From assembly GCA_049522435.1 (NCBI GenBank), contig JBEKNW010000001.1, positions 25,001 to 89,000 on the forward strand: a stretch of DNA of 64,000 nucleotides, written 5' to 3'. A program made the position numbers and the translations under genes. This stretch comes from Xanthobacteraceae bacterium (GTDB lineage Bacteria; Pseudomonadota; Alphaproteobacteria; Rhizobiales; Xanthobacteraceae). Numbering within the stretch: position 1 is the first letter of the stretch; each line of letters begins with the position of its first letter. The notes beneath the pieces are model-generated. The model saw nothing but the letters and a program-made list of their open reading frames with translations. It made no database searches and was not told the DNA's origin. Of the stretch, positions 4,342-38,843 are shown piece by piece.

Positions 4342-4368
4342 ATTCCTCGATTTCCCGTGAGCTGCGTC

Positions 4369-6236: not shown

Positions 6237-6239
6237 CCC

Positions 6240-8572: not shown

Positions 8573-8638
8573 AGAAGATGGCCGTCGAGGCGCACGACAT
8601 GCGCGCCTCGACGGCCGCATGGTGACGAAAGAGCGGCA

Positions 8639-10129
8639 GTGTCGATCCTGACCGCGCGGGGCGTGGTAAAGCGGTTCGGCGGCGTGGTGGCGCTGAACGG
8701 TGCGGAAATATCATTGTCCGCCGGTCGCGTCGGCGGCCTGCTCGGCGCGAACGGTGCGGGCAAATCGGTCCTCTCCGCCATCCTCGCCGGCGAGATCAGG
8801 CCCGACGAAGGCGAGATGTCCTTCGACGGCCGCCCGGTTTCTCATCCTTCACCGCGGGCAGCGCGCGATCGCGGCATCGTCATTGCCCATCAGCACGCCA
8901 GCCTGGTGCCGGACCTGCCGGTCTGGGAGAATCTGTTTCTCGGAGCCGAACGGCGCGGCCGGTTCGGCCTCATCGACCGGGAGGGCAGCCGCACGGCAGC
9001 GGCGGAAGCGTTGGCGCGGCTTTCCCCGGATTTCGATGTCGATCGCCTTGCCGGCGAGCTTTCGAGCGCGGAGCAGCAACTCGTCGAGATCGCGCGCGCC
9101 CTGCTGCGAAAGCCGCGCGTTCTCATCCTCGACGAACCGACCGCCAGCCTGGCGCATACCGAAGTCGAGCGTCTGTTCCAGGAAATCCGGAAACTGGCCG
9201 GCGAAGGGGTGGCAACGGTATTCATCTCGCACCGTCTGCCCGAAGTGGAGGAGATCTGCGACGATTTGGTGGTGCTCCGCAATGGGCAGACCGTCGGCAG
9301 TTGGTCCATCGGCGCCAAGCTCGATCACGACCGGCTGCTGTCGCTGATGACGGGCGAAACCGAAATCGCGGCGCACGAGCGGCTGGTACGCGACATCGGC
9401 CCGGTCGTACTGGAGGCGGCCGGGCTCGCCGTCACTCCGCGGCACGAAGGGGCGACGCTCGCGCTACGGTGCGGTGAAATAGTCGGGCTTGCCGGTCTAC
9501 AGGGCCAAGGTCAGGAAGAGATTCTCGAGGCGCTTGCCGGGGGGCGCCGTATTGCGGCCGGCCGGGTCCGGGTCGAGGGTGGCGAGCTGCGGCCGCGGCG
9601 GCCACGCGACATGATCCGCCACGGCGTGTGCCTGGTGCCCGGCGACCGCCATCGGCAGGGTCTCTTCATTGGTCAGTCGATAGAAGAGAATCTCGACTAC
9701 CCGTCAGCCTGCGTTCGTCGCCGGCCGTGGACCCTGCCTTTCGCCGAGATCCGCCGCAGCGCCCTTGAGATCATCAGGTGGCTGGGGATCAAGGCCAGCG
9801 GACCGACGCAAGCGGTCGGCGCGCTGAGCGGCGGCAACCAGCAGAAGGTGGTGATCGGCAAATGGCTGCCGCTCGCGACCAAGGTCCTGCTGCTGAGCGA
9901 CCCCGCGAAAGGGGTCGACGTCCGTGCCAAGGGCGAGATCTATGCCGCGGTCGAGCGTCTTGCCGCCGACGGCGCCGGCGTGCTGCTCTACGCGTCCGAC
10001 TTCCAGGAGTTGCTCAGCCTGTGCGACCGCGTGCTGGTCGTCTACGACGGGCGCATCGTCGGTGAGTTCGCGGGCGAGACGATGACCGAATATAACCTGC
10101 TCGCTGCCTCCTTCGGGCGCGCGGCATGA
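8639..10129 (+). CDS. Sugar-type ABC transporter ATP-binding protein (duplicated ATPase)
   Basis: 496 aa with two ABC cassettes: Walker A GANGAGKS, signature LSSAEQQ / LSGGNQQK, and Walker B ILILDEPT / LLLSDP. Confidence 0.9.
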   Translation: MSILTARGVVKRFGGVVALNGAEISLSAGRVGGLLGANGAGKSVLSAILAGEIRPDEGEMSFDGRPVSHPSPRAARDRGIVIAHQHASLVPDLPVWENLFLGAERRGRFGLIDREGSRTAAAEALARLSPDFDVDRLAGELSSAEQQLVEIARALLRKPRVLILDEPTASLAHTEVERLFQEIRKLAGEGVATVFISHRLPEVEEICDDLVVLRNGQTVGSWSIGAKLDHDRLLSLMTGETEIAAHERLVRDIGPVVLEAAGLAVTPRHEGATLALRCGEIVGLAGLQGQGQEEILEALAGGRRIAAGRVRVEGGELRPRRPRDMIRHGVCLVPGDRHRQGLFIGQSIEENLDYPSACVRRRPWTLPFAEIRRSALEIIRWLGIKASGPTQAVGALSGGNQQKVVIGKWLPLATKVLLLSDPAKGVDVRAKGEIYAAVERLAADGAGVLLYASDFQELLSLCDRVLVVYDGRIVGEFAGETMTEYNLLAASFGRAA

Positions 10130-11061
10130 GGGCCCTTCGCCACGCCGGCCTGCTGCCGAGCCTGGGAATGCTGATCGTCGTCTTCGCGATCAATGTCGCG
10201 CTCCAGCCCGGTCTCCTGACGCGCGGGTCTTTGTCCAGCAATATCGCCACCTTTGCCCCGACCGTGCTGGTCAGCGCCGCGCAGGCCATCATCGTGTTGA
10301 GCGGCGAACTCGATCTGTCCGTCGGGACCGGTGTGTCGATGCTCAATTGCGCATTGGCGACACTGCCGGAGCTCGCGGGTTGGGGCCTGTGGCCGACCCT
10401 CGCCGCGACCTTCGCGATCGCCCTGCTGGCCGGAGCGACGAACGGCGTGCTCGTCGCCTATCTGCGGCTGCCGTCGCTCATCGTCACATTCGCCACCAGC
10501 GCGATCTGGTTCGGTGTGGCGCTGATCTTCCGGCCGCAGCCGGGCGGCAGCGTCGACCCGGCATTCGGCGACTTCTACGCCGGCAGCGTCTGGGGTGTTC
10601 CGATCGCGCTGATCCTCATCCTTGTCGCCCTCGGTCTCTGGTCGGCGCTGCAACGCTATCCACTGGGGCGGCAATTGCTGGCGGTCGGAGGCAACTCCGT
10701 GGCCGCCTTCCATGCCGGCATTGCCGTCCGCTGGGTCAAGTTTTGCGGCTACTGCATCGCGTGGTGCTTCGTCTACCTTGGCTCCCTCGCCATCTCGGCA
10801 CAGACCCTCTCCGGCGATTCCCGGCTGGGTCTTCCTTACACCTTGACCTCGGTGGCGGCCGTGGTGATCGGCGGCATTTCGCTCGCCGGCGGCCGCGGCT
10901 CGGTCTGGGGTGCGGCGTTCGGCGCAATCGCGCTGGGACTCGTCGCCAATGTCATCTACTTCGCCGGCATCCCCAGCATCTATCAGGAGTTCTTCAAAGG
11001 CATCGTGATCTGCATGGCCTTGAGCTTCACCTTCATCGTCGGCCGGAGGAAAACCGCGTGA
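10126..11061 (+). CDS. ABC transporter permease (ribose-type)
   Basis: Multi-TM protein with the VVIGGISLAGGRGSVWG motif. The start overlaps the ATPase stop. Confidence 0.85.
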   Translation: MRALRHAGLLPSLGMLIVVFAINVALQPGLLTRGSLSSNIATFAPTVLVSAAQAIIVLSGELDLSVGTGVSMLNCALATLPELAGWGLWPTLAATFAIALLAGATNGVLVAYLRLPSLIVTFATSAIWFGVALIFRPQPGGSVDPAFGDFYAGSVWGVPIALILILVALGLWSALQRYPLGRQLLAVGGNSVAAFHAGIAVRWVKFCGYCIAWCFVYLGSLAISAQTLSGDSRLGLPYTLTSVAAVVIGGISLAGGRGSVWGAAFGAIALGLVANVIYFAGIPSIYQEFFKGIVICMALSFTFIVGRRKTA

Positions 11062-11999
11062 TCACATTCCTGCGCACCGGCGGACTGTTGCTGGCTCTTA
11101 GCGTTGTATTGATGGTCCTGGGAAATTTCGTTACGCCCGGGTTCCTCAGTTTCACGCAAGTCAGTACGCAGCTCAAGATCAGCGCGTTCCTCGGCCTGTT
11201 CGCGCTGTGCCAAACTTTCGTCCTCATCGCCGGCGGTGAAGGTATCGATCTCTCGGTCGGCGCCAACGGCTCGCTCGGCGGCATCGTCGGCGCCGCGCTT
11301 ATTCAGGGCCAGGATAGCGCCGTCCTGCCGGTCGCCATCCTCATGGGACTGGCCGGCGCCGCCGTCGGCACAATCAACGGGCTGGGCGTGGCGCTGTTCG
11401 GCGTGCCGCCCCTGGTGATGACGCTGGCGATCGCCAGCATCGTCAACGGCGGGCTGATCATTTTCGAATCGATCGCGCAGCCGGCAATCGCCGCGAGCCC
11501 TTTTCTGGCGCAGCTCGCCGGCCGCACCACCTTAGGCGTGCCCAACATCTTCCTCTTATGGATCGCCATCGGGCTGGCTGCGGTGTGGTTTCTCTCTGCC
11601 ACCGCCTGGGGCCGCAAGATTTTCGGCACCGGCGCAAACGCCCAGGTGGCGCTGCTCTCCGGCACCAATGTTCCGCTGGTGAAGATATCGGTCTATGCGA
11701 TCAGCGGGCTCGTCGCGGCGCTCAGCGGGTTTTGCCTCATCGGTTACGTCGGCGCGGCCTTTCTCGGCTTGGGCGACGCTTACGTGTTGTCGAGCATTGT
11801 GGTCGCAGTGATCGGCGGCATGTCGCTTGCCGGCGGCAGGGGATCCTATATCGGTGTCGCCGCCGCGGCCATTCTGATCACGGTCTTGACCAGCCTCTTG
11901 ACCACGATGCAGATCGGCGAGGCGGGACGCCAGATTGTGTTCGGCTGCATCCTCGTCGTTTTCCTGCTGCTCAACCGCCGCCTCGACCGCGCGGGCTGA
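11058..11999 (+). CDS. ABC transporter permease (ribose-type), second subunit
   Basis: In-frame GTG at 11058 overlaps the previous stop (GTGA). VITFLRTGGLLLALS...VAVIGGMSLAGGRGSYIG. The upstream 237 codons of track ORF 10347..11999 are an Arg-rich shadow frame over permease 1. Confidence 0.8.
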   Translation: MITFLRTGGLLLALSVVLMVLGNFVTPGFLSFTQVSTQLKISAFLGLFALCQTFVLIAGGEGIDLSVGANGSLGGIVGAALIQGQDSAVLPVAILMGLAGAAVGTINGLGVALFGVPPLVMTLAIASIVNGGLIIFESIAQPAIAASPFLAQLAGRTTLGVPNIFLLWIAIGLAAVWFLSATAWGRKIFGTGANAQVALLSGTNVPLVKISVYAISGLVAALSGFCLIGYVGAAFLGLGDAYVLSSIVVAVIGGMSLAGGRGSYIGVAAAAILITVLTSLLTTMQIGEAGRQIVFGCILVVFLLLNRRLDRAG

Positions 12000-12038: not shown

Positions 12039-12179
12039 GTTCCGACTCGTCGTGTCCTTCCCAAGAATCATATCCGCGCATCTGCCGGGTCGTCATTATT
12101 GACACCCCCAACTCGATTATCGATAAGTGACCGTTCAATGAAAAGACGCCCGGGAAGGACCGTCGTGGGGAGTCAAATC

Positions 12180-13952
12180 ATGATTGCCACTTTCTTTGGC
12201 GACAAAGAATTTCCGATTGAGTGGGACGAGGGGCAAAAGGAGCTGTTCTGGGTCTACGACGACTTGCACATCCCAAACCCTGTGTCGCCGATGTATGCTG
12301 ACATTGGCGGTTGGTGGTTGAGTTGCGACTACATGTTCCGCCGGTTTGGTACTCCGTTCGCATCGGATTGGTTGGTCAAGGTCATCAACGGTTATATTTA
12401 CAGTGCCGCGATTCCGGCGAAGCCGGACGTCCGTGCCGTGGCTTCGGAATACGGGGCTCGCTACATGGGTCGGACGCCGGTTGATGCGGCGTATTCGACG
12501 CAAATCGGCGCCTATCTCGGCTGGACGCTTCCTTACTACGCCGACCACTTTCTAGATTGGTGGCGCGAGCGTTTCCGTCCGGAAATGGAGCACAACTTCG
12601 TTCGTTTCGACACCTATGATTACGATGGCGCGAGCCTGCTCGAACTCGCGATTCTGCTCGAGGATGTCATCGACATTCACGACCGCCACTGGAAAATTCA
12701 CTGGCTGCTCAATTTCTCCCAATTCTCCGCGACCATGGCTCTCAACCAAGCGGTCGCCGAGGTGAAGGGCGAAGGCGACCGCGGGGAACTCATGGGACGT
12801 CTGCAAGCGTCGACCGAGGACCGCAACTGGGACTCGATCAAGGGGCTGTGGGAACTGAAAGAGTTCGTCAAGGGTGAGGGCGGAGATGTCGCCAAGGCGT
12901 TCAGGAAGCCCACGGCGAAGGACGTGCTCGCCGCCTTGAAGGAGAGCAAAGCTGGGCGCTCTTTCATTGCCAATCAGCTCGATCCCTATCTGAACGTTTT
13001 CGGCTATAAGTCCATGTGGGCACATGAATTCTCCTTCAAGACGTGGAAAGAGAACCCAGTGCCGGCGATCGAAGCCATTCGCGGTTACCTCGAGACGGAC
13101 TACGACTTCCGCACTGATCTCGAGAGGGTGGGTTGCGATCTCGAGGCCGCTAAGGCGCAGGTCATGGAAGGGGTTCCCGCCGGAGAAGGTCGTGACAAGT
13201 TGGCCCGCGCCCTCGCGCTGAGCCTGAAGATGAATCCGCTCACGCCTGATCATCACTTCTACATCGACCAAGGGACCAATGCGCGCGTTCGCGTCGTCCT
13301 AATCGCAATCGGGACGAAATTGGTTGCGCAAGGAGTGCTGCTCGACCCCGAGGACGTGATGTATCTGCACTACAACGAACTGCGTGCTGTCATGGCGGGC
13401 AGCTTCCCTGGGGATGTGCCGGAACTGGTGTCCGATCGCCGTGACCAGCGCGAGGACGCCTATAAGCTGCGTCCGCGCGATTGGGTGGGGACCGCTACCG
13501 ATGAAGCGCTGGCCTTCCCCTATCTGACGAACTGGGGATTCCCGGAGAAATTCCACCGCAAGCCCCCGACGAGCGCCGGCGTCATCAATGGGCTGCCCGC
13601 ATCGAGCGGGGTGGTCGAAGGAATCGCCAGAGTGCTGCTTACTCCCGATGATTTCGACAAAGTTCAGAAGGGAGAGATCGCCGTTTGCCGTACGACGAGT
13701 CCAGCCTGGGTGGTCTTGTTCACCCGGATCGGGGGTCTTGTGACCGATGCCGGGGGTATGGCCTCCCACCCCGCGGTTGTTTCCCGTGAGTTCGGCATTC
13801 CGGCCGTGGTCGGCACATCGGATGCGACGCTGCGCATCACAACGGGCGACCGGGTTCGCGTGAATGGCTCGACGGGACAGGTGGATGTTCTCTCCACGTC
13901 CGCGAAACAGGCGGCGCAAAAGGCGACGGAGGAGTCTCCCCTCCACATCTGA
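12180..13952 (+). CDS. PEP-utilizing enzyme mobile (phospho-His swivel) domain protein, phenylphosphate synthase PpsA-like (590 aa)
   Basis: The C-terminal ~90 aa are GLPASSGVVEGIARVL...GEIAVCRTTSPAWVVLFTRIGGLVTDAGGMASHPAVVSREFGIPAVVGT, the canonical swivel domain with the catalytic His. I could not assign the ~490-aa N-terminal body. Start placed at ATG 12180, preceded by GGGGAG. Confidence 0.7.
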   Translation: MIATFFGDKEFPIEWDEGQKELFWVYDDLHIPNPVSPMYADIGGWWLSCDYMFRRFGTPFASDWLVKVINGYIYSAAIPAKPDVRAVASEYGARYMGRTPVDAAYSTQIGAYLGWTLPYYADHFLDWWRERFRPEMEHNFVRFDTYDYDGASLLELAILLEDVIDIHDRHWKIHWLLNFSQFSATMALNQAVAEVKGEGDRGELMGRLQASTEDRNWDSIKGLWELKEFVKGEGGDVAKAFRKPTAKDVLAALKESKAGRSFIANQLDPYLNVFGYKSMWAHEFSFKTWKENPVPAIEAIRGYLETDYDFRTDLERVGCDLEAAKAQVMEGVPAGEGRDKLARALALSLKMNPLTPDHHFYIDQGTNARVRVVLIAIGTKLVAQGVLLDPEDVMYLHYNELRAVMAGSFPGDVPELVSDRRDQREDAYKLRPRDWVGTATDEALAFPYLTNWGFPEKFHRKPPTSAGVINGLPASSGVVEGIARVLLTPDDFDKVQKGEIAVCRTTSPAWVVLFTRIGGLVTDAGGMASHPAVVSREFGIPAVVGTSDATLRITTGDRVRVNGSTGQVDVLSTSAKQAAQKATEESPLHI

Positions 13953-13967
13953 TTAAGACGGCGTGAA

Positions 13968-14792
13968 ATGACCGGCTCGTCCTTTGTGCTATCCTTCGGC
14001 GACCCGCAGTGTCGTACTGTGAGCCTCAGCGGTGGGAAGGGCGGAAGCATGGCGACCATGATGCAGGAGGGACTGCCGGTTCCTCCAGGTTTCGTGGTCA
14101 CCTCTGCCGCGTTTACCGCCGCGGTTGACCAGGAGCGGCTACGAACTTGCTGCCGCGCCCGCGACATGACCGGCGCTCGGGAGATCGTCGCAGCGGCAAG
14201 GCCACCGGCGACGATCGTTGCCGAGCACTACGCCGTGCTCAATGGCCTAGTCGCGGTGCGTTCCTCGGCATGCGCGGAAGACTCCGAGGGAGCGAGCTAC
14301 GCCGGCCAGCAGGAGACCTATCTCAACGTCGATGGGCTTCCCGCCGTGCTCGAAAAAATCGTGGAGTGCTGGTTGTCTTTCTTCACCGACCGCGCCGTCT
14401 TCTATCGCGCCGAAAAGGGCTCCTTGGAGGACATTGCTATGGCTGTCGTCGTCCAACAGATGATCGACTCGAAGAAGTCCGGGGTCCTCTTTACCGTTGA
14501 CCCGGTGCACGGCCGCAAAGACCGAATGGTCGTTGAGGCCGCGTTCGGCCTCGGCGAGAATGTGGTCGATGGTGAGCATACTCCCGACCACTATTCATTG
14601 GATCGTAAGGGTATGATCAAGCGCAGCCACATCGTTGGCAAGCAGGTTCTAGACGAGACTGAGTTGAAGCTACTGGCGGCTCTGGGGCGGAAGTTGGAGG
14701 AAATGCACGGGTGCCCGCAGGACATCGAGTGGGCATTCGACCAGATCGGCGACCTCTTCCTCCTGCAGTCCCGGCCGATTACCGCCATCTAA
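13968..14792 (+). CDS. Stand-alone PEP synthase/PPDK N-terminal ATP-grasp (nucleotide-binding) domain protein, PpsB-like (274 aa)
   Basis: LSGGKGGSMATMMQEGLPVPPGFVVTSAAF...VAVRSSACAEDSEGASYAGQQETYLNV...DIEWAF...LFLLQSRPIT. Lies 15 nt downstream of the swivel-domain gene. Confidence 0.75.
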   Translation: MTGSSFVLSFGDPQCRTVSLSGGKGGSMATMMQEGLPVPPGFVVTSAAFTAAVDQERLRTCCRARDMTGAREIVAAARPPATIVAEHYAVLNGLVAVRSSACAEDSEGASYAGQQETYLNVDGLPAVLEKIVECWLSFFTDRAVFYRAEKGSLEDIAMAVVVQQMIDSKKSGVLFTVDPVHGRKDRMVVEAAFGLGENVVDGEHTPDHYSLDRKGMIKRSHIVGKQVLDETELKLLAALGRKLEEMHGCPQDIEWAFDQIGDLFLLQSRPITAI

Positions 14793-14959
14793 AAGGTCCG
14801 CAGATGAGGTGCGTAACCTACGAGCGCAACGGCCGGTGGAACCAAGCGTAGTGGCATGGCCGCGAACTCGGTGCCGCCGGCGCTTTGGAATTTACCAACG
14901 CTGGAACCTACTACTTCGGCGCGGGTTTGGCGCAAACCGACTGAGCCACGGAAAAGAAC

Positions 14960-15829
14960 GTGCGGCCGTTTCGCTGGGTGAGACCGACTAGCCTTCAGGA
15001 AGTGATCGGCTTCCTGGAGGAGCATGGCGCCGCCGCCGTGTTGCTCGCGGGCGGCACCGACCTCATCGTCGGTCTGCGCGACGGGAAGATAGCCCCGCGC
15101 GTAATCATCGACGTGAAACGTACAAGCGACCTGCCACCGATCATCACCGAAGCAGATGGTTGGCTCACGATCAGCGCGACAGTGGCGCTGAGCGATATCG
15201 AAAGGCACGAGACCGTGCGTTTCCACTTCCCGGCGCTTGCGGAGGCCGCAGGCGTGGTGGGATCCATCCAAATTCGTAACCGCGCCACCTTGGTCGGTAA
15301 CGTCTGCAACGCCTCCCCGGCCGCGGACACCGTTCCCGTGCTCGCAGTATACGGCGCTTTTGTAAAAGTGCTCGGCCCCGGTGGCGAGCGGCGGTTACCT
15401 ATCGTCGACTTCATTCAGGGCAACCGACGCACCGCCCTTGCTGCCGGCGAGCTCGCCACGGCCGTGAGCATCCCGTTTCCAAATCAGCCCTTCGGCGCTG
15501 CCTTCGCCCGAATTACACGGCGGCGCGGCGTCGACTTGGCCACCGTGAACCTCTGCTGCGGCATCGACAATGCCGGAGTGACGACTTTCGCATTCGGCGC
15601 CGTGTCGCCGCGCCCCCTGCTGCTGCGAGACGCTGGTGGCGCCCTAGCCGATCCATTTGCCGCAGCCGAGGCTAAAGCAATCGCGCTGGACGCTTTGATC
15701 TCGAAGGCCTCTCCTATCACGGACGTGCGTGCGAGTGCGCAATACCGTCTGGCGATGCTGAGGGTATTGGCAAAGCGAGCCCAACGCCGAGCTGCCGAAA
15801 GACTTGCCGATGGAAAGAAACATGGGTGA
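14960..15829 (+). CDS. Molybdenum hydroxylase FAD-binding subunit (CoxM-like)
   Basis: LLAGGTDLIVGLRDG...IRNRATLVGNVCNASPAAD, plus a CO-dehydrogenase flavoprotein C-terminal-like tail (RASAQYRLAMLRVL). Confidence 0.8.
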   Translation: MRPFRWVRPTSLQEVIGFLEEHGAAAVLLAGGTDLIVGLRDGKIAPRVIIDVKRTSDLPPIITEADGWLTISATVALSDIERHETVRFHFPALAEAAGVVGSIQIRNRATLVGNVCNASPAADTVPVLAVYGAFVKVLGPGGERRLPIVDFIQGNRRTALAAGELATAVSIPFPNQPFGAAFARITRRRGVDLATVNLCCGIDNAGVTTFAFGAVSPRPLLLRDAGGALADPFAAAEAKAIALDALISKASPITDVRASAQYRLAMLRVLAKRAQRRAAERLADGKKHG

Positions 15830-18644
15830 CACGAACCCAATCGAAATTACCGTCAACGGCCGACGCCACTCGTTGGATATCGGCTCCAACACCACCTTGT
15901 TGGACCTGCTGCGCGACACCTTGCACCTGTACGGTCCGAAAGAGTGCTGTGGCGTGGGCGAGTGCGGCGCCTGCACGGTGTCCGTCAACGGCCGCACCGT
16001 CAACTCCTGCCTAATGCTTGCCGTCGAGGCCGACGACGCCGAGGTGGTCACGATCGAAGGGCTCGGCGCCGGGGAACTCAACCCACTGCAAGAGGCCTTC
16101 ATCGACCACGGTGCGGTGCAGTGCGGGTTCTGCATCCCCGGTATGCTGATGTCCGCCCAAGCGCTACTCGACCAGGACCTGCAACCAGACGATGAGAAGA
16201 TTCGCGAAGGTTTGTCGGGTAACCTTTGCCGTTGCGGCGGGTACAATCGGATAGTCGAAGCCGTCCGCGCAGTGGCGACAGCGGGTGGAACCGGCAAGGA
16301 TACCCGCGCGAAGAAGTTTGCCGGCGACGATGCGGGATGTGGTCCGCATCGGCCAGACCACGCGCCCAGGCGCTACGGACAAAACGTCGAAACCTGCGTC
16401 GGCGCCAATGTGCGGCGTCTCGGCGGCCGCGAACGCGTGAGTGGAATCCAAAAATTCCTTGCGGACATCCCGCTTCAGGGCATGCTTCACGTCAAACTTG
16501 TCACCCTTGACGCGGCCCGAGCACGCATCGTCTCCATCGACACCACCGAGGCTCGCACTCTGCCCGGTGTCGTCGACATCATTACGGCGGACGATTTACC
16601 AACGCCGGTTCCGCGTTTCGGCCCGGTCTACAAGGACCGGCCAGTCCTCGCAGTTAGTGAGACCAAATACCACGGTGAGCCCGTGGCGGCCGTGGCGGCA
16701 GAGTCGAAGGAGACGGCCGAACTGGCGGTGTCCTTGGTGCGCGTCGAATACGAGGCATTGCCCGCGGCTTTCTCCGTGACGGGCGCGCTCGCGCCGGATG
16801 CGCCACTCGTGCAAGACCCGGCGCTCCGTGCCGGCGATCCGCTGGCCGCCACCAATGTCCTCAAGGAGCGGAGATATGGCTGGGGCGACGTCGACTCCGC
16901 GAAGGCCGACATCGTTGTCGAGAATTCTTATTCATTCCCGATGGTTACGCATTTTGCGATCGAGCCCCACGGTTTCATGGCGTTGGTCGAGAAAGACGGT
17001 CTGAAAATATGGAGTCCGGTCCAGCATCCGTTCCTGCTGCAGAGGATCATGGCGGAGCTCTTCGACCTGCCGTTGACCCAGGTGCGCGTATTTGCTCCAG
17101 ATCCGGGCGGTGGTTTCGGCGGGAAGCAAAACCCCAAGCTTGAGCCTCTAGTGACATACCTGGCGCTTCGCACTGGCCGCCCTTGCCGGCTGGTGCTCAG
17201 CCTGGAGGAGACATTCCAGGCCGTTCGGCGCACTGCCGCGGAGATACACGTACGCACCGGTTTCACCCGATCCGGGGAAATACTCTTTCAGGACATCAAA
17301 TCCGACTTTCTGGTCGGTGCCTATGCCGACATCGCGGAACGGGTCATGACCAAGGCGAACTATTTGGGCTGTGGCCCTTACCGGACAGCCAACGCCAGAA
17401 TCCACGCCCGGGCGGTGCTATCGCACACTACGCCTAGTTGCGCCTTTCGCGGCTTCGGCGCGCCGCAAATCGCTTGGGCAGTGGAGTCGCAGATGGACGC
17501 AGCGGCTCGGGAACTCGGCTTGGACGGGTTGAACATCCGAATGCGCAATCTTGCAAGGAAAGGGGATGAGGTCGTGCGCGGGGACACGCCCGCAGATGGC
17601 AACTGGCCGGAAACGGTGCGCCGTGCGGCGGAAGCGGTGGGCTGGAACACCCCGCTTGCTCCTGGGCGTGGTCGCGGGATTGCCGTGGGCATCAAGTCCG
17701 GCGCCACCACGGGTCTTTCAAACTCCACCATACGGCTGCTCGCCGACGGCAGCGTCATCATCTATGCCGGAACATCCGACATGGGCCAGGGGGCAAGGAC
17801 GATTTTCGCTCAGCTCGCGGCGGACGCGCTCGGCGCACCACTGGAAAAAGTGTCGGTGGTGATGGGGGATACTTCCGTAGTACCCTTCGACCTGCAAACA
17901 TCGGCGAGCCGGTCGACGGTGTTCATGGGCACTGCCATCGTTCGTGCTTGCGAGGACATCCACGAGCAATTGCGCGAGATGGCCGCCGACCTGCTTGGGT
18001 ACGCCAAGGCCGAAGTGAGCGTAGCGAGCGGCGTGGTGAACCTTCCGGACCGCGCATTGTCGATTGCCGAATTCATTGCAGGCAAGCTCGGGCCCTGGAA
18101 CGGCGAACTGATCGGCAATGGCCGGATGCGAAAACCGGCCGCGCCCGACCATCCGCTGGGTGGGACGCCGGCCTTTTACGAGTTCAACTGCACCGCGTTT
18201 GAAGTCGAGGTGGACACCGATACCGGCGAGATTCTCATTCACAAGCACGTCACCGTCGGCGATGTCGGGAAGGCGCTGAACCCACTACAGGTGGAGGCGC
18301 AGGATGAGGGCGCGGCTATCATGGGGCTCGGTCACACGTTGATGGAACATATCATTCTCGATGGCGAAGGACGTATCAGCAATCTCGGTGCCCTGGACTA
18401 CCGCATTCCGACTACCAAGGATGTCCCGCTAGCGCTGCAGGCGCTGAGTGTTGAGAACGCGGACGGCCCAGGACCTTACGGATCAAAGGGGGTCAGCGAA
18501 GGCGCTTTGCTCTGCACCGCCCCGGCACTTGCTGCGGCTTTAACCCAGGCGACCGGTGTCGTGATCAGGGACCTACCTCTGACGCCGGAGCGCGTGTGGC
18601 GGGCCATACAGGATGGCTCTGGCCGGGACAGGTCAGGCCGATGA
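15822..18644 (+). CDS. Fused [2Fe-2S] small subunit / molybdopterin-binding large subunit of a xanthine dehydrogenase-family hydroxylase
   Basis: N-terminus: CGVGECGACTV and CGFCIPGM...CRCGGY. A ~60-aa linker follows, then the hammerhead and MoCo domains (GGGFGGKQ, SCAFRGFGAPQIAWAVESQMD, PGPYGSKGVSEGALLC). The start overlaps the FAD-subunit stop by 8 nt. Confidence 0.85.
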   Translation: MGDTNPIEITVNGRRHSLDIGSNTTLLDLLRDTLHLYGPKECCGVGECGACTVSVNGRTVNSCLMLAVEADDAEVVTIEGLGAGELNPLQEAFIDHGAVQCGFCIPGMLMSAQALLDQDLQPDDEKIREGLSGNLCRCGGYNRIVEAVRAVATAGGTGKDTRAKKFAGDDAGCGPHRPDHAPRRYGQNVETCVGANVRRLGGRERVSGIQKFLADIPLQGMLHVKLVTLDAARARIVSIDTTEARTLPGVVDIITADDLPTPVPRFGPVYKDRPVLAVSETKYHGEPVAAVAAESKETAELAVSLVRVEYEALPAAFSVTGALAPDAPLVQDPALRAGDPLAATNVLKERRYGWGDVDSAKADIVVENSYSFPMVTHFAIEPHGFMALVEKDGLKIWSPVQHPFLLQRIMAELFDLPLTQVRVFAPDPGGGFGGKQNPKLEPLVTYLALRTGRPCRLVLSLEETFQAVRRTAAEIHVRTGFTRSGEILFQDIKSDFLVGAYADIAERVMTKANYLGCGPYRTANARIHARAVLSHTTPSCAFRGFGAPQIAWAVESQMDAAARELGLDGLNIRMRNLARKGDEVVRGDTPADGNWPETVRRAAEAVGWNTPLAPGRGRGIAVGIKSGATTGLSNSTIRLLADGSVIIYAGTSDMGQGARTIFAQLAADALGAPLEKVSVVMGDTSVVPFDLQTSASRSTVFMGTAIVRACEDIHEQLREMAADLLGYAKAEVSVASGVVNLPDRALSIAEFIAGKLGPWNGELIGNGRMRKPAAPDHPLGGTPAFYEFNCTAFEVEVDTDTGEILIHKHVTVGDVGKALNPLQVEAQDEGAAIMGLGHTLMEHIILDGEGRISNLGALDYRIPTTKDVPLALQALSVENADGPGPYGSKGVSEGALLCTAPALAAALTQATGVVIRDLPLTPERVWRAIQDGSGRDRSGR

Positions 18645-18702
18645 CATCGCCCATCCGGCTCGGAACATGTTTTTGCAGGACTGGACAAGGGAAGAGAGCA
18701 CA

Positions 18703-19389
18703 ATGAGGATCGTCGATCTGAGCCGAGAACTCTATCATCGCACGCCGAGCTATCCGGGACAGCCGCCTATCATCTACGGCGTGTGGAAGTCGCATGAAGA
18801 AGCATTCGTCGATTCCGGCTACGTACAGGGCAACGCGGTGATGTTCTTCTCCATGCCAGACCACGGCGGCACGCACATCGACGCGCCGCGCCACTTCGGC
18901 ATGAGCGGCACGCCGATCGACAAATACCCGCTGGAGAACTGCATCGTCCAAGGCATCTGCATCGACCTGCGCCACATCGCGCCGCGCGCGGAGATCACGC
19001 CGGCCGATCTCGAGGCTGCGGTGACGAAGGCGGGCGTGCCGATCCCGAAAAAGGGCACCGTGCTGCTTTGCACCGGCCATCACGCGCGCACGTTCCCGAC
19101 GCCGGCCTATGCGACGGATAATCCCGGGGTCAACGTCGCCGCGACCGAATGGCTGGCGCAACAAGGCATCGTGCATTTCGGCATCGATTCGATGCGGCCG
19201 GGACCGATGGGCAAGATCAACTCGTTGGTGCACAAGGCCTGCCTCGAACTCGACATCACGCACATGGAGAGCCTGTGCAATCTCGAAGCGTTGCTCGGCC
19301 AGGGCGAATTTCAGTTCATCGGCCTGCCGCTCAAATGGCGCGAGGGCACTGCCTCGCCGATCCGCGCGGTGGCGGTGTTCAACGATTGA
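18703..19389 (+). CDS. Cyclase family protein (kynurenine/aryl formamidase-like metal hydrolase)
   Basis: HGGTHIDAPRHF motif, length ~228 aa. Start at MRIVDLSREL, preceded by GGGAAGAGAG. Confidence 0.75.
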   Translation: MRIVDLSRELYHRTPSYPGQPPIIYGVWKSHEEAFVDSGYVQGNAVMFFSMPDHGGTHIDAPRHFGMSGTPIDKYPLENCIVQGICIDLRHIAPRAEITPADLEAAVTKAGVPIPKKGTVLLCTGHHARTFPTPAYATDNPGVNVAATEWLAQQGIVHFGIDSMRPGPMGKINSLVHKACLELDITHMESLCNLEALLGQGEFQFIGLPLKWREGTASPIRAVAVFND

Positions 19390-19579
19390 TGTTTTGGTCG
19401 CACGCTGCCGGATCATGAATTGTTCAAGGTTGTCACTTCGTGCTGTGCTGTTCATCCTTCGAACAGCGGATCGGCCATTGCGCGGCCGCCTACGAACAAG
19501 TAGTGTCCCGCCGCCGATCATGGCGAATTAAATCGTGACTGGATCAGCTTGAAACAACAACTCTTTGCGCGAGAGGCAC

Positions 19580-20425
19580 ATGGGACATCGATACACGCGA
19601 GAAGAAGTAGAGGCTCGCCTGCGCGCCACCATCTCAGCGGGCAGTCCGATAATCGTCGCGGGTGCCGGAAACGGGCTCTCCGCAAAATGTGCAGAGCTTG
19701 GCGGAATCGACCTGGTCGTCATTTACAATAGCGGCAAGTTTCGTATGGACGGCTTGCCGTCCATCTGCGGCCTGATGCCGTACGGAAATGCTAACGAGAT
19801 TGTGCTGGAACTTGGAGAGAATCATGTGCTTCCAGCCGTAAAGAAGACGCCAGTGATGGCCGGGGTATGCGGCACCGATCCTACGCGAAATATGCGCAGC
19901 TTTCTTAAGCAGCTCTGCGAGGTCGGATTTTCTGGTGTCATCAACTATCCGACCGTATCTCGGTTCGACGGAAATATTCGCCGTGACTTTGAGTCTGTTG
20001 GACTGGGCTTCGCCCGCGAAGTCGAAATGATCGCGACAGCTCGAGAGGTTGGCCTGTATACAACCTGCTATATCCGCACCCCCGAGGAAGGCGCCCAGAT
20101 GGCCCGAGCGGGCGTAGACTTGATCGTTCCTCATGTCGGGCTAACCAGCGGAGGAACGATTGGTTCAGGAGGAGCCATGTCCCTGGACGAAGCTGTAAAG
20201 GCGACACAGGATATCATCGATGTGGCGCGCGCTGTAAATTCCGATGTAATCGCCTTGGCGCATGGTGGACCGATAGAGAACCCGCAAGATGTCGCTTATG
20301 TTCTAGAGCGGACTACCGCACAGGGCTTCGTCGGGGCATCGAGCATTGAGCGGCTGCCAGTGGAGACCGCTATTGTAGGCGCAGTCCAAGCATTCAAGAA
20401 GCTTGCCGTGCCGGCAAGAAGATAA
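19580..20425 (+). CDS. Phosphoenolpyruvate hydrolase-like TIM-barrel protein (PF09370-type)
   Basis: SPIIVAGAGNGLSAKCAELGGIDLVVIYNSGKFRMDG...YGNANEIV...GFSGVINYPTV...HVGLTSGGTIG...LAHGGPI...GFVGASSIERLP closely follows the family pattern as I remember it. Confidence 0.7.
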   Translation: MGHRYTREEVEARLRATISAGSPIIVAGAGNGLSAKCAELGGIDLVVIYNSGKFRMDGLPSICGLMPYGNANEIVLELGENHVLPAVKKTPVMAGVCGTDPTRNMRSFLKQLCEVGFSGVINYPTVSRFDGNIRRDFESVGLGFAREVEMIATAREVGLYTTCYIRTPEEGAQMARAGVDLIVPHVGLTSGGTIGSGGAMSLDEAVKATQDIIDVARAVNSDVIALAHGGPIENPQDVAYVLERTTAQGFVGASSIERLPVETAIVGAVQAFKKLAVPARR

Positions 20426-20630: not shown

Positions 20631-21362
20631 TCACATCCCGAGATAGAATTGGCGGATCAGGTCGTTATTGTTGAGCTCGTCGGCCGAGCGGCCTTCGAAG
20701 GCGATCTTGCCGTGCACAATCACATAGCCGCGGTCGGCGATGCGGATAGCTTGGGTGAAATTCTGTTCGGCCATCAGCACGGTGAGCTGGTAGTGCTCCT
20801 TGAGCTGCTTGATGGCGTCGATGGTGCGGCTCACCAGTTGCGGCGCCAGCCCCACCGACGGCTCGTCCACCAGCAGGATGCGCGGCGCCAGCATCAGCGC
20901 GCGGGCGAGCGCCAGCATCTGTTGCTCGCCGCCGCTCATGCTGCCGGCGAGCTGATGGCGCCGTTCCGCCAAGCGCGGAAACGCCTCGAAGCAGAAAGCG
21001 AGATTGGACTTGATGTGCGCGCGCGCCTTGGGCCGGAAGGCGCCGAGCAAGAGATTTTCCTGTACCGTCAGTTTCGCGAATAACCGGCGCCCCTCCGGCA
21101 CCAGCGCGATGCCGATATCGACGATCTGCTCTGTTTTCATTCCGATAAGGTCATGCTTCTTGCCGTCGATTTCCACGACGATGCGGCCGGCGGTCGGCCG
21201 CACGATGCCCATCACGCATTTCATCAGCGTGCTCTTGCCGTTGCCGTTCGTGCCAAGCAGCGTGACCGTCTCGCCGGCATTCACGGTCATCGACACGTCC
21301 TCGATTACCCGCACCGCGCCATAAGCGGCGTACACGTTTTCGATGGTGATGCTATTGGCCAA
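20631..21362 (-). CDS. Branched-chain amino acid-type (Liv/HAAT family) ABC transporter ATP-binding protein, LivF-like
   Basis: GTNGNGKST, MSGGEQQMLALARAL, ILLVDEPSVGLAP, and the C-terminal ...RQFYLGM. Confidence 0.9.
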   Translation of the reverse strand: MANSITIENVYAAYGAVRVIEDVSMTVNAGETVTLLGTNGNGKSTLMKCVMGIVRPTAGRIVVEIDGKKHDLIGMKTEQIVDIGIALVPEGRRLFAKLTVQENLLLGAFRPKARAHIKSNLAFCFEAFPRLAERRHQLAGSMSGGEQQMLALARALMLAPRILLVDEPSVGLAPQLVSRTIDAIKQLKEHYQLTVLMAEQNFTQAIRIADRGYVIVHGKIAFEGRSADELNNNDLIRQFYLGM

Positions 21363-22086
21363 GATATGCCCTCACCACTTCGGGATCACGCACCACGTCT
21401 TCCGGTTTGCCATCGGCAACTTTCTTGCCCGACACCAGCACCGCCAGCCGCTGCGAGAATTTCATCACCGCGCTCATGATGTGCTCGATCAGGATGATGC
21501 TGATGCCGCGCTCATTCAGACGCATCAGCAATGCCAGGATGTCATCGATCTCCGAATGCGACAGCCCGGCCATGGATTCGTCGGCGATCAGCAGCTTAGG
21601 CTCGGCCGCCATGGCGCGAGCGAGCTCCAGCTTGCGCATCTCGACCTGGGTGAGGTGGCGCGGCAATTGCTTGGCCTTTTTCGCCAGCCCGAACATGTCC
21701 AGAAGTTCGAGGCAGTGCGCATCGAGATCGCCGACCGAGCGCAGCGGTCCCATACGGGCGTGCACGGTGTAGAGCAGCGGAATGCGCAAATTATCGGCAA
21801 GCGTCATGCTGTGGAACGGGCGCGGTAATTGGAAACTTCGGGCGAGCCCGCGACGAGTGCGCTGATGCGCGGCAAGCCCGTCTAGCGATTTGCCGTCAAA
21901 ATACACGGTGCCGTCTTCGTTCTGCAGGGTGCCGCAGATGCAATTGACCAGCGTGCTCTTCCCCGAACCGTTCGGGCCAATCAGCCCCAGCCGCTCGCCC
22001 GGATGCACCTCGAGGTCGATGCCGTCGAGGGCGACGAATCCGTAAAAGCGTTTGCTGATGTTGTCGACGTGCAGCAGCGGGGTCAT
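21352..22086 (-). CDS. HAAT-family ABC transporter ATP-binding protein, LivG-like
   Basis: GPNGSGKST, LLIADESMAGLS, and the C-terminal DPEVVRAYLGQ. Confidence 0.9.
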   Translation of the reverse strand: MTPLLHVDNISKRFYGFVALDGIDLEVHPGERLGLIGPNGSGKSTLVNCICGTLQNEDGTVYFDGKSLDGLAAHQRTRRGLARSFQLPRPFHSMTLADNLRIPLLYTVHARMGPLRSVGDLDAHCLELLDMFGLAKKAKQLPRHLTQVEMRKLELARAMAAEPKLLIADESMAGLSHSEIDDILALLMRLNERGISIILIEHIMSAVMKFSQRLAVLVSGKKVADGKPEDVVRDPEVVRAYLGQ

Positions 22087-23039
22087 CGCTGCCTCCGCGG
22101 GCGCAGGTACTCCTGCGCCAGCCCAACCAGGCCGTTGGGTGCGATAATGACGAAGGCCACCAGCAACAGGCCGACAATCAGCAGGTTGACCGCCGAAGAA
22201 ATGGTGACGGTCGCGATCTGCTGCAACGAGCCTAGCAGAATGGAGCCGACCAGCGGGCCGACCCAGCCGGTGGTACCGCCGATCATCGGCATGGCGATCG
22301 AATTGACCGTGTATTCCAGGCCGAACGCCGACGACGGCTGCAGATAACCAATGTAATATGGGAACGGCGCGCCGGCCATGCCCATGAAGGCGCCCGAAAG
22401 CGTGGTGGCGATCAGTTTCAGGCGCAGCGTCGGCACACCGGAAGCTTCCGCCGCTATCTCGTCGTCACGAATGGAGCCGAAGCCGAAGCCGAGCTGCGAA
22501 CGCTCAATCGTGCGCGCGGTGGCCAATGCGATCAGCGCCAGTGCCAGCATCAGCCCGAACAGATATTCGATGTAGTTGATCTGGAAGCCAGCGATATCGA
22601 CGGTATCCGGGCTGACGATGTAGGCGCCGCGCGAGCCGCCGACATAGTCCCAGTTCACCACCAGCGTTTGCAACACTACCGCGAGCGCCAGCGTGGCGAT
22701 GGCGAAGAACGCGCCGCGCAGCCGCAGCGTCAGATAACCCATGCCGAAGCCGACGATGCCGGACACCACCGCGCCGATCACCACCAGGACCGGCACCGGT
22801 AGCGGATAGAACTTGTACATGAACACCGAGCTATAGGCCCCGAGCGCGAAGAACGCGGCCGAGCCGAAATTCACATACCCGCAATAACCGCCGAGGATAT
22901 TCCAGGCCGTTGCCAGCACGATGAATTGCAGGATCGTGTAGCCGGCGAAATAGAAATAGTCGAGCTTCAGCCAATGGGCGAAGGCCAAGACGAGGAGGCC
23001 GACACCGATCGTGACAGTTGAGAATTTCACGACACCCAC
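22083..23039 (-). CDS. HAAT-family ABC transporter permease, LivM-like
   Basis: Multi-TM protein. The WNILGGYCGYVNFGSAAFFALGAY motif is typical of LivM. Confidence 0.85.
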   Translation of the reverse strand: MGVVKFSTVTIGVGLLVLAFAHWLKLDYFYFAGYTILQFIVLATAWNILGGYCGYVNFGSAAFFALGAYSSVFMYKFYPLPVPVLVVIGAVVSGIVGFGMGYLTLRLRGAFFAIATLALAVVLQTLVVNWDYVGGSRGAYIVSPDTVDIAGFQINYIEYLFGLMLALALIALATARTIERSQLGFGFGSIRDDEIAAEASGVPTLRLKLIATTLSGAFMGMAGAPFPYYIGYLQPSSAFGLEYTVNSIAMPMIGGTTGWVGPLVGSILLGSLQQIATVTISSAVNLLIVGLLLVAFVIIAPNGLVGLAQEYLRPRRQR

Positions 23040-23042
23040 GAG

Positions 23043-23918: not shown

Positions 23919-24278
23919 ACGGGTCTCAACCGGCACATTCACTTAACGCAAATTGCATTGCAGGGAAATCACAGCCTGATACGTTTTGTTCTGCTGCTGA
24001 ACTCAAAAATATTCGATTAACCGGAATTCCCCGACTGAACCCTCGAACTGCCGTGGATGGTAGGCGTTTTCCGAACTGGCTGGACGCCCAGTTCGAGGGG
24101 CAGTTGGCTTTCGGCATTCCAAACCCTCCGAGACCGGACGGCTCGTGTCCGCTACTACTGCGAAGCCGACGCGCGGATAAAGTTCTCCAGGATGCCGCTC
24201 GCATGCAGCCCGCGTGGATACCGCAGAGGTCTGAACGTGTATCACGCAACTGTTAGAGCCACGCTCCCTAATCAGTTC

Positions 24279-25653: not shown

Positions 25654-25723
25654 GCTAAGCTATTGAGTGAACTAAATGCCCCGGATCGGTTGCAATTGGG
25701 TGGGCAAGATTTATAAAAACAGC

Positions 25724-38830: not shown

Positions 38831-38843
38831 GGGGAGGATCAAT

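Follow-up and report, generated by a model that had tools for sequence, protein, structure and literature searches.

A six-gene operon of a Xanthobacteraceae bacterium joins a split small-molecule dikinase to a molybdenum hydroxylase: a possible phosphorylation-dependent route for hydroxylated N-heteroaromatics

According to the textbooks, molybdenum (Mo) hydroxylases work by themselves, with no requirement beyond water and an electron acceptor. Why, then, is a pair of genes for an ATP-consuming dikinase found directly beside the genes for such an enzyme? The question is raised by 6 genes at positions 12180-20425 of a 64,000-nt stretch of DNA from a Xanthobacteraceae bacterium (GenBank assembly GCA_049522435.1, contig JBEKNW010000001.1, positions 25,001 to 89,000), here called the window. 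The genes encode a two-component dikinase (KinA and KinB), a hydroxylase with FAD, iron-sulfur (FeS) and Mo cofactors (CoxM1 and CoxSL1), a cyclase-family hydrolase and a PF09370 TIM barrel. We give about an even chance to the joint claim that they form one catabolic operon built around the dikinase and the hydroxylase, and that a hydroxylated substrate is O-phosphorylated, hydroxylated as its phospho-ester by the Mo enzyme, dephosphorylated and opened as a lactam.

The 6 genes were all located on the + strand (Table 1), and the short gaps and overlaps that the earlier note on this DNA had described were recovered as spacers of 15 nt, 167 nt, an 8-nt overlap, 58 nt or an overlap, and 190 nt, in the order from KinA to the PF09370 protein. 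The Pfam scan likewise upheld all of its domain calls, namely the swivel domain, the PPDK_N domain, the CoxM-type subunit, the fusion of FeS and Mo-cofactor (MoCo) domains, the cyclase family and PF09370. In the profile scan, none of the 6 proteins reached an NCBIfam equivalog cut-off, and by this measure none of them is therefore a named, curated enzyme. The Shine-Dalgarno sequence GGGGAG was found 8 nt 5' of the KinA gene, and further upstream a promoter-like TTGACA and the motif CTCGATTATCGATAAGTGAC. The motif is common to the regions upstream of KinA in 2 related loci (L002 and L005; L-numbers refer to loci with relatives of KinA), and since it is kept there despite a different preceding gene, the 6 genes are suggested to have a promoter of their own. 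A consensus scan for promoters and terminators gave counts at or below shuffle expectation and did not call this site. The Rfam scan of the whole window gave no element, and hence no Moco riboswitch, and a megablast search of the operon against the PLSDB plasmids gave no match. It was also noted that the GC content at third codon positions was 0.59 in the PF09370 gene versus 0.71 to 0.86 in the other operon genes and neighbors, which may reflect a different history or expression level.

The only Pfam match of KinA was the PF00391 swivel domain at residues 496-566. The sequence TDAGGMASH530PAVVSRE in this domain fits the T/SxxGGxxxH motif of the two-component dikinases, with H530 located within about 60 residues of the C terminus, and residues T522, G525, G526, S529 and H530 were invariant in 30 homologs. 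The earlier note could not assign the body of about 490 amino acids in front of the swivel domain. We found that KinA matched the NCBIfam families PRK08296, PigC, RedH and Rph (E = 2e-41 to 2e-44 for PigC and RedH), and that the precomputed annotation of KinA-type bodies included PF27448 (Rph_4th). An AlphaFold2 model built from 30 homologs (pLDDT 68, pTM 0.70), which was confident for a helical core at residues 110-430, was searched against the PDB with Foldseek, as the earlier note had proposed, and rifampin phosphotransferase provided the only significant matches (E ~1e-11, 480 columns, TM ~0.5). The core was highly conserved, with a mean column identity of 77% among the 30 homologs. Based on the profiles and the model, the N-terminal body can be assigned as a substrate domain of the rifampin phosphotransferase type. 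KinB matched PF01326 (PPDK_N) with 242 bits, and its PDB matches were the ATP-grasp domains of phosphoenolpyruvate (PEP) synthase and rifampin phosphotransferase. No PEP/pyruvate TIM barrel (PEP-utilizers_C) was detected by Pfam in either protein.

To place the pair among its relatives, one genome per GTDB species was scanned for KinA, which yielded at least 594 relatives, and the best 79 loci (60% to 93% identity) were compared. The content of the loci was determined by de novo clustering of all open reading frames (ORFs) and by tblastn with annotated proteins, and counts of flanking genes were restricted to loci with full 10-kb flanks. The gene for KinB adjoined the gene for KinA in 77 of 82 loci. 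This bears on the explanation that the 2 ORFs are an ordinary ppsA gene broken by a frameshift or rearrangement, in a neighborhood brought together by chance. PEP synthase profiles do match both ORFs, but the TIGR01418 scores of 97 and 224 bits are far below the cut-off of 740, the PEP-utilizers_C domain is lacking, the swivel domain precedes the ATP-grasp domain, and both the pair, in several phyla at 60% to 93% identity, and the whole operon are conserved. The Pfam domains and the conservation of pair and operon refute this explanation, and we give it virtually no probability. The split, order-permuted architecture of PEP synthase and rifampin phosphotransferase that the earlier note had proposed thus stands, as an adjacent and recurrent pair that is collinear with PpsA/PpsB and has no TIM barrel.

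The earlier note regarded PpsA/PpsB as the sole characterized split precedent, but CreHI, HpeHI and AcvAB are also characterized two-component phenolic dikinases (PMC12167813, PMC9618137). PpsAB acts on phenol, CreHI on 4-cresol, and HpeHI and AcvAB on hydroxyphenylethanones. In HpeHI and PpsAB, ATP is converted to AMP and inorganic phosphate via a phospho-His that swivels to a substrate domain resembling that of rifampin phosphotransferase, and the HpeH component alone moves phosphate between phenols (PMC12167813). HpeCBA does not accept substrates that lack the phosphate, which HpeD takes off the product afterwards (PMC9618137); this is a precedent for a kinase whose product is passed to an enzyme specific for the phosphorylated form, with a phosphatase acting later. 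The window pair resembles the 4 systems in having a separate ATP-grasp protein, a rifampin-binding-like domain with a swivel His, adjacent genes and a catabolic setting, and KinA has a Ser before the His in its motif, as do PpsA and CreH. The sequences are distant, however. KinA was 25% identical to PpsA of Azoarcus sp. KH32C, collinear over residues 14-572, and KinB was 34% identical to PpsB, with 2 internal deletions of about 25 amino acids each and a length about 100 amino acids shorter than in the two-component phenolic dikinases. Since HpeH, CreH and PpsA share about 45% identity pairwise, KinA and KinB stand far from them, as a lineage of their own within the subfamily. The partner enzyme in the window is a Mo-hydroxylase, whereas the partners of PpsAB, CreHI, HpeHI and AcvAB are UbiD-type or biotin carboxylases or a P450, and the window also lacks the PpsC and HAD phosphatase of those systems.

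The PpsAB genes of Azoarcus sp. KH32C belong to a canonical phenol cluster that also comprises PpsC, ppcBDAG, UbiD and UbiX. Searches of the window with the Azoarcus PpsC, ppcA, ppcB, UbiD and UbiX proteins gave no match (tblastn, E <= 1e-3, a threshold used for all tblastn searches of the window reported here), in agreement with the statement in the earlier note that no UbiD or UbiX is present and that this is not the phenol pathway. Rifampin phosphotransferase (5HV1, 5FBS, 5FBT, 5FBU) was the only solved structure that matched most of KinA and has the same 3 functional modules, but it is a single polypeptide of ATP-grasp, substrate and swivel domains with about 20% identity, and an antibiotic-resistance enzyme, whereas the ATP-grasp domain in the window is encoded by a separate downstream gene in a catabolic setting. 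Judged by these comparisons, KinA and KinB make up a genuine split, order-permuted dikinase of the PEP synthase and rifampin phosphotransferase type and a distant member of the PpsAB/CreHI/HpeHI/AcvAB subfamily, which is complete and, with the catalytic His kept, apparently functional.

The next 2 genes encode what is by its domains a complete Mo-hydroxylase of the xanthine oxidase family. CoxM1 contained PF00941 and PF03450, while CoxSL1 contained Fer2, Fer2_2, hammerhead (Ald_Xan_dh_C), MoCoBD_1 and MoCoBD_2 domains in one polypeptide. The segment KGVSEGAL in CoxSL1 aligned with the Glu region of NdhM, 4-hydroxybenzoyl-CoA reductase, Qor and CoxL, so that the catalytic Glu is kept. The closest solved structures to CoxSL1 were Desulfovibrio aldehyde oxidoreductase (1DGJ, 1SIJ), which shares the FeS-MoCo fusion and the catalytic Glu but, unlike the window enzyme, has no separate FAD subunit, followed by the alpha subunit of 4-hydroxybenzoyl-CoA reductase (1RM6). 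These enzymes and the nicotinate dehydrogenase of Eubacterium barkeri (3HRD) belong to the xanthine oxidase family, as do the window enzymes, with matches far below the equivalog cut-offs. A reductive dehydroxylation like that of 4-hydroxybenzoyl-CoA reductase was considered and dropped, as the match of CoxM1 to the beta-subunit profile was partial (best at residues 2-117) and reached 117 bits against a cut-off of 405. CoxM1 orthologs were 74% to 89% identical in the loci most similar to the window and 55% to 57% identical in actinobacterial loci. The sequence conservation of CoxSL1 across phyla is striking: it was 76% identical to an unfused CoxL in Georgenia soli that adjoins a kinase pair with 73% to 75% identity.

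The linkage between the kinase pair and the Mo-hydroxylase was found to span Alphaproteobacteria, Actinomycetota, Chloroflexota and Thermomicrobia, with CoxL, CoxM and CoxS located beside the pair in 39 of the 49 loci with full flanks. The earlier note had allowed that the neighborhood might recur in no other genome, but the same set was found in 5 metagenome-assembled genomes (MAGs) of Alphaproteobacteria from soil or peat (L005, L006, L007, L008 and L022). The 6 genes were in the same order in L005, L006, L007 and L022, at 74% to 93% identity, while in L008 the cyclase-PF09370 gene pair had been moved upstream of the kinase genes. That the set is kept in L008 while the order is changed is good evidence for a functional linkage of the 6 genes. 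At positions 11785-15210 of L008, the tblastn matches to KinB, CoxM1 and CoxSL1 were partial (about 60%, 50% and 57% of the length), either because of frameshifts from long-read sequencing or because the operon has decayed after the rearrangement. A small gene of the EthD family (dimeric alpha/beta-barrel, ABM superfamily) was located just 5' of the KinA gene in L002 (9433-9744), L005 (~2775-3081, apparently frameshifted) and L009 (21055-21360), and was missing from the window.

We distinguished 3 types of clusters. The type represented by the window and the 5 MAGs (type W) encodes KinA, KinB, CoxM1, the fused CoxSL1, a divergent cyclase (30% identity to that of type T) and PF09370 without UPF0261, plus an AraC regulator, an enzyme resembling nicotinate dehydrogenase (Ndh) and an importer. 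Type T, found on a megaplasmid in Thermomicrobium roseum and in Thermoleophilia, Gaiellales, Ktedonobacteria and a Devosia MAG, encodes KinA, GntR, a cyclase, KinB, an HD-domain protein, CoxM/L/S, a FAH-family hydrolase and ABM, with SRPBCC in some loci and PF09370 together with a Tm-1-like UPF0261 gene in others. Type G, found in Georgenia and other Actinomycetes, encodes KinA, KinB, FAH, ABM, His_Phos_1, an aldehyde dehydrogenase, a CoxSL1-type hydroxylase, a metallo-beta-lactamase-fold protein and GntR. No match to the FAH, ABM, His_Phos_1, HD, metallo-beta-lactamase-fold, GntR, SRPBCC or UPF0261 proteins was detected in the window by tblastn. Compared with the uncharacterized Thermomicrobium locus (NC_011961.1, 56-73 kb), which also contains CoxM/L/S, a cyclase-family protein and an ABC importer, the window proteins were 50% (KinA), 45% (KinB) and 58% (PF09370) identical, but only 30% to 38% for the cyclase and the Mo subunits, and its FAH, ABM, HD, GntR and UPF0261 genes are missing from the window.

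A dikinase and a Mo-hydroxylase have been connected genetically once before, in the 3hpd cluster of Ensifer adhaerens HP1, where the Mo-hydroxylase HpdA (HpdA1-4) makes 2,5-dihydroxypyridine from 3-hydroxypyridine only with orf9 (PPDK) and orf10 (a PEP-utilizing mobile subunit); knockout of either gene abolishes growth of HP1, and the requirement was also seen in a heterologous host (bioRxiv 10.1101/2020.01.08.898148). The authors pointed to CreHI and PpsAB and left the role of the kinase open (bioRxiv 10.1101/2020.01.08.898148), and our full-text literature search found no later paper on the link. The window shares with 3hpd an adjacent split pair of swivel and ATP-grasp proteins beside an FAD/FeS/Mo hydroxylase, an ABC importer nearby and a wide but patchy distribution. 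It differs in the FeS-MoCo fusion, the cyclase hydrolase, PF09370, the AraC regulator and the second, Ndh-like enzyme. HpdA has a separate SRPBCC (CoxG-like) subunit, whereas tblastn with 4 SRPBCC/CoxG proteins gave no match in the window. The 3hpd cluster also has GntR and the maleamate pathway genes hpdBCDE, whereas neither the families of this pathway (2,5-dihydroxypyridine dioxygenase, deformylase, amidase and maleate isomerase) among the 46 Pfam-scanned ORFs of the window nor a GntR match was detected. The published order of the 3hpd genes in Gaiella also differs from that of type T.

That a dikinase pair is essential for a Mo-hydroxylase was thus already known from 3hpd, and the claim of the earlier note that no described pathway has this gene combination holds only once the cyclase hydrolase and the unaccompanied PF09370 are counted in. 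What is new is, by sequence comparison, a lineage sister to the known pairs, which has members in the genomes of at least 594 species and in most cases adjoins a Mo-hydroxylase, and, within it, the uncharacterized window variant with a fused FeS-MoCo subunit, a cyclase hydrolase, a lone PF09370 and an upstream Ndh-like enzyme and importer.

How might the 2 enzymes work together? In the route that we propose, KinB would present ATP, and H530 of KinA would be pyrophosphorylated and keep the beta-phosphate upon release of AMP and inorganic phosphate. The phosphate would be passed to the growth substrate, bound in the helical domain of KinA, at a ring hydroxyl like that of a pyridinol or phenol. 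This substrate is most probably a hydroxylated N-heteroaromatic compound, because of the 3hpd precedent, the Ndh-like companion enzyme and an amidohydrolase, instead of a dioxygenase, as the likely ring opener; no ring-cleaving dioxygenase was detected in the operon by the Pfam scans. The upstream Ndh-like enzyme might form it from a parent compound that the adjacent ABC importer has brought into the cell. CoxM1/CoxSL1 would then take the phospho-ester, not the free hydroxy compound, and add a water-derived hydroxyl group next to the ring nitrogen. Thereafter the phosphate would be removed, for which the PF09370 barrel is the sole candidate in the operon, and the polyhydroxylated lactam ring would be opened hydrolytically by the cyclase-family metal hydrolase. 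The rationale would be that Mo-bound hydroxide attacks an electron-poor carbon, and that conversion of a strongly donating O- or OH group to a phosphate ester makes the ring more susceptible; the ester would also shield air-sensitive polyhydroxypyridines. The route builds on the gene content, the domain and fold assignments, the conserved catalytic His and Glu residues and the gene linkage, all of which are directly established, and from these we infer the substrate class, the order of the steps and the role of PF09370.

The steps could also be taken in another order, close to the "lactam oxygen" variant of the earlier note. A Mo-hydroxylase would first make a pyridone or lactam, the dikinase would phosphorylate the lactam or enol oxygen to give an imidoyl or enol phosphate as a leaving group, and the cyclase and PF09370 proteins would open or substitute the ring. 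Two Mo-hydroxylases are present in the neighborhood, one of which could precede the kinase, and PF09370 is classed with PEP-handling TIM barrels. KinA also matches PigC and RedH, in which the same machinery activates a carbonyl oxygen for condensation. However, the kinase genes of 3hpd are needed for the hydroxylation itself, 3-hydroxypyridine being left unconverted without them, all characterized two-component members phosphorylate a pre-existing phenolic hydroxyl, and most loci of the window lineage have a single Mo-hydroxylase. We therefore regard the reversed order as unlikely, and return to phosphorylation before hydroxylation.

The proposed ring opener belongs to PF04199 (120 bits versus a cut-off of 23) and has the metal motif HGGTHIDAPRH (HxGTHxDxPxH). 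Its PDB relatives, all weak matches, were kynurenine formamidases and isatin hydrolases, but its score for the arylformamidase TIGR03035 was only 69 bits versus a cut-off of 223, and it is therefore not a kynurenine formamidase equivalog. The PF04199 proteins HpoH and PKC have been implicated in the hydrolytic opening of 2,3,6-trihydroxypyridine (PMC6214936). These enzymes share family and metal motif with the window protein, and members of the family hydrolyze the C-N bonds of formamides and lactams; HpoH and PKC are found in pyridine-ring pathways, and the window cyclase is likened to them by family only. The protein was 91% to 92% identical across all 5 window-type loci. We do not claim orthology to the cyclase of an Arthrobacter plasmid, to which it was 32% identical; the name of that strain hinted at an origin from nicotine soil, but its cyclase gene is not located in a nic cluster. 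The sequence of chemical events suggested in the earlier note, O-phosphorylation, Mo-hydroxylation and opening of an amide, appears plausible.

PF09370 is a domain of unknown function that is also present in the plant virus-resistance protein Tm-1. The window protein contained the domain at full length (366 bits) and matched 2P10 (Mll9387) with E = 4e-84 over residues 4-275; it was 81% to 92% identical in the window-type loci and 58% to the Thermomicrobium copy. UPF0261, its usual partner, with which it is paired in plant Tm-1 and which occurs in bacteria as the stand-alone MarK, was demonstrated in 2025 to phosphorylate aromatic hydroxyl groups (PMC12624787). In agreement with the earlier note, no UPF0261 partner was found in the whole window by tblastn with the Thermomicrobium Tm-1-like protein, nor was any found in the 5 window-type loci (L005-L008 and L022), whereas the type T PF09370 is always accompanied by UPF0261. 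In the Thermomicrobium roseum megaplasmid (L084; NC_011961.1, 56118-73327), the split dikinase and the Tm-1-like UPF0261, both of them kinds of aromatic-hydroxyl kinases, were encoded in one co-directional cluster together with PF09370, a cyclase protein, FAH, ABM, an HD-like protein, CoxM/L/S, GntR and a Liv-type ABC importer. A PF09370 protein (~76% identity) was always found with UPF0261 in 7 other loci. The idea that PF09370 is a stand-in for the UPF0261 kinase by non-orthologous displacement is weakened, since Thermomicrobium and these 7 loci encode PF09370 and UPF0261 together and have the split dikinase as well.

A different role is suggested by the phosphohydrolases. Among the 50 loci with full flanks, drawn from L001-L083 and the window, 49 encoded a candidate phosphohydrolase. 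His_Phos_1 was found in 19 loci and the HD protein in 19 loci, with no overlap, which looks like the non-orthologous replacement of one function. PF09370 was never found together with His_Phos_1 and was the sole candidate in 7 loci, including the window. Because the families are nearly complementary, and because PF09370 is the only candidate in these 7 loci, it is a candidate for the phosphatase slot in the window, although we consider this assignment doubtful. The processing of a phospho-enol intermediate, which the earlier note had in mind for this protein, has no direct support. A broader claim is that the cross-phylum cluster family uses O-phosphorylation to make electron-rich hydroxy-N-heteroaromatics available to Mo-hydroxylases, with the PF09370 protein of the window as an aryl- or heteroaryl-phosphate phosphohydrolase; this we put forward as a tentative possibility.

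Several observations weigh against the proposed route. PF09370 co-occurred with the HD protein in 4 loci and with both the UPF0261 kinase and the split dikinase in Thermomicrobium, the complementary distribution of the phosphohydrolases follows clades and is phylogenetically confounded, and we know of no demonstrated activity for PF09370. Outside the window-type loci, the cyclase protein was only about 30% identical to the type T cyclase and 32% to 40% to uncharacterized plasmid-borne members, and its chemistry is therefore extrapolated from the PF04199 family. The binding protein of the CUT2-type importer had only generic ribose- or sugar-type matches that provide no clue to the substrate. 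Furthermore, the best solved relative of CoxSL1 is an aldehyde oxidoreductase and not a heterocycle hydroxylase, the aldehyde dehydrogenase and FAH genes in clusters of type G are of a kind usually seen in routes for carbocyclic aromatics, and the 3hpd study detected no phosphorylated intermediate (bioRxiv 10.1101/2020.01.08.898148).

A further point concerns the 3hpd precedent itself. In Blastococcus (tunisiensis) DSM 46838, the 3hpd cluster is located on contig NZ_FOND01000033 (supplement of bioRxiv 10.1101/2020.01.08.898148), while the window-like copy of KinA (70% identity) was found on NZ_FOND01000004.1 (L027), and the 3hpd copy fell below the top 80 KinA relatives (>= 60% identity). From the 2 copies we infer that the window kinase is a paralog of the 3hpd pair, in lineages with different substrates, which also counts against the route. 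L027 is no proof of orthology with 3hpd, as the 3hpd cluster lies on another contig. The gene order in L027 was GntR-KinA-KinB-FAH-ABM-aldehyde dehydrogenase, and there was no Mo-hydroxylase within 10 kb.

The aldehyde oxidoreductase similarity and the type G genes are what would be expected of a carbocyclic route of the Cre or Hpe type, in which a phenol is phosphorylated, its side chain is oxidized with CoxM1/CoxSL1 as an aromatic aldehyde oxidoreductase, and the phosphate is taken off last. The Desulfovibrio enzymes have the same FeS-MoCo fusion, and every biochemically characterized two-component dikinase acts on carbocyclic phenols. Yet neither a P450 nor an alcohol dehydrogenase, a carboxylase or a ring-cleavage dioxygenase is encoded in the window-type operon, its cyclase-family amidohydrolase would be left without an obvious role, the companion enzyme is nicotinate dehydrogenase-like, and the sole genetic precedent for a kinase with a Mo-enzyme concerns an N-heterocycle. 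Since the similarity to aldehyde oxidoreductases is moreover modest and below every NCBIfam cut-off, we consider the carbocyclic route to be quite improbable.

The lack of a detected intermediate in the 3hpd study would in turn fit a dikinase that does not act on the pathway substrate, but activates or maintains the Mo-hydroxylase by phosphorylation of a protein or cofactor, or traps a compound with no link to the hydroxylation. Scavenging or trapping is the reason for phenol phosphorylation proposed by the authors of the HpeHI study (PMC12167813). On the other hand, the domain in which rifampin phosphotransferase and PpsA bind small molecules is complete in KinA and has a highly conserved core, phosphohydrolase candidates are encoded beside the pair in nearly all loci, and an adjacent importer lessens the need to trap a passively diffusing compound. 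Such a role appears very unlikely to us, and phosphorylation of the substrate ahead of the Mo-hydroxylase remains the preferred reading.

The cluster extends beyond the 6 genes, in that the AraC gene, a second Mo-hydroxylase and the upstream importer travel along with it in related loci. The closest solved structure to the second Mo-hydroxylase was NdhL of the Eubacterium barkeri nicotinate dehydrogenase (E = 6e-67), with the same split into L and M subunits. In L002, L005, L008 and L022, the AraC gene (60% to 89% identity) was found next to either the second Mo-enzyme or the kinase operon, the second Mo-hydroxylase was kept with the kinase operon in L002, L005, L008 and L014, and the CUT2 importer adjoined the second Mo-enzyme in L002, L008 and L022 (88% to 97% identity). 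As a module, they accompanied the kinase operon in L002, L005, L008 and L022 at 60% to 97% identity, in a different orientation. Of the 2 flanking ABC importers reported in the earlier note, both are present, but the downstream Liv-type importer and the metallophosphoesterase gene that follows it were not conserved with the 6-gene set. A perfect 16-bp GC-rich hairpin was located directly 3' of the stop codon of the CUT2 binding-protein gene. Such hairpins are typical of intra-operon mRNA stabilizers or attenuators that raise the level of the binding protein over that of the downstream transporter genes.

In the right half of the window we noted an island of genes for purine salvage and catabolism (43491-63303), which includes genes for an XdhB-type Mo subunit and a probable XdhA, bringing the number of xanthine oxidase-family enzymes in the window to 3. 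An unrelated block of acyl-CoA or branched-chain-type catabolic genes was also present, with a TetR gene and an MmgE/PrpD gene upstream of it.

Table 1. Positions of the operon genes and of other features in the 64,000-nt window
Feature	Position	Strand	Basis or remark
KinA, predicted substrate-binding and phospho-His swivel component of two-component small-molecule dikinase, 590 aa	12180-13952	+	PF00391, fold, motif
KinB, stand-alone ATP-grasp (PPDK_N) dikinase component, 274 aa	13968-14792	+	PF01326
CoxM1, Mo-hydroxylase FAD-binding subunit, 289 aa	14960-15829	+	PF00941 and PF03450
CoxSL1, fused 2x[2Fe-2S] and molybdopterin-binding subunit, 940 aa	15822-18644	+	Alternative ATG 15810
Cyclase-family (PF04199) metal-dependent amidohydrolase, 228 aa	18703-19389	+	ORF opens 18613
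PF09370 "PEP hydrolase-like" TIM barrel without UPF0261 partner, 281 aa	19580-20425	+	PF09370 full length
Promoter-like TTGACA and conserved upstream motif	12099-12131	+	Motif 12112-12131; ~50-80 nt 5' of KinA
AraC-family regulator, divergent	2336-3361	-	HTH_18 and HTH_AraC
Second Mo-hydroxylase, four subunits	3427-7253	+	Pfam; FAD 3427-4341, FeS 4357-4869, split Mo subunit 4866-6236 and 6240-7253
CUT2-type ABC importer	7547-11999	+	Pfam; binding protein 7547-8572, ATPase 8639-10129, permeases 10126-11061 and 11058-11999
GC-rich hairpin, 16 bp	8580-8616		3' of binding-protein stop codon
Liv-type ABC importer	20631-25541		
Metallophosphoesterase	25676-26566		
MmgE/PrpD gene	33830-35194	-	
TetR gene	35570-36667	-	
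Acyl-CoA/branched-chain-type catabolic block	36834-41918		E1 alpha and beta dehydrogenase components, enoyl-CoA hydratase, acyl-CoA dehydrogenase
OHCU-decarboxylase/HIU-hydrolase fusion	43491-44378	-	
PuuE-like polysaccharide-deacetylase-family gene	44394-45350	-	
M20 amidohydrolase	45528-46853		
Amidohydro_1 protein	47545-48903		
Phosphoribosyltransferase	48959-49561		
Adenosine deaminase	49617-50633		
Bmp-type nucleoside ABC importer	50719-55491	-	
XdhC	58337-59329	-	
XdhB-type Mo subunit, 800 aa	59439-61841	-	
Probable XdhA	61774-63303	-	Candidate

No explanation has followed the one genetic report, of 2020, that a Mo-hydroxylase can depend on a dikinase that consumes ATP. The comparisons made here indicate that the coupling is not the curiosity of one plasmid: the module is widespread, occurs in several paralogous lineages and is combined with downstream enzymes that can replace one another. 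Its compact 6-gene version lends itself well to studies of the chemistry. The presence of PF09370 in a pathway that would be initiated by phosphorylation, and without its usual kinase, also provides a testable hypothesis for the role of this family. If the proposed route is true, it would represent a general strategy of phospho-activation for nucleophilic hydroxylation and provide a first function for the widespread PF09370 proteins, with relevance for how N-heterocycles of natural origin and pollutants of the pyridine type are degraded in soil and peat.

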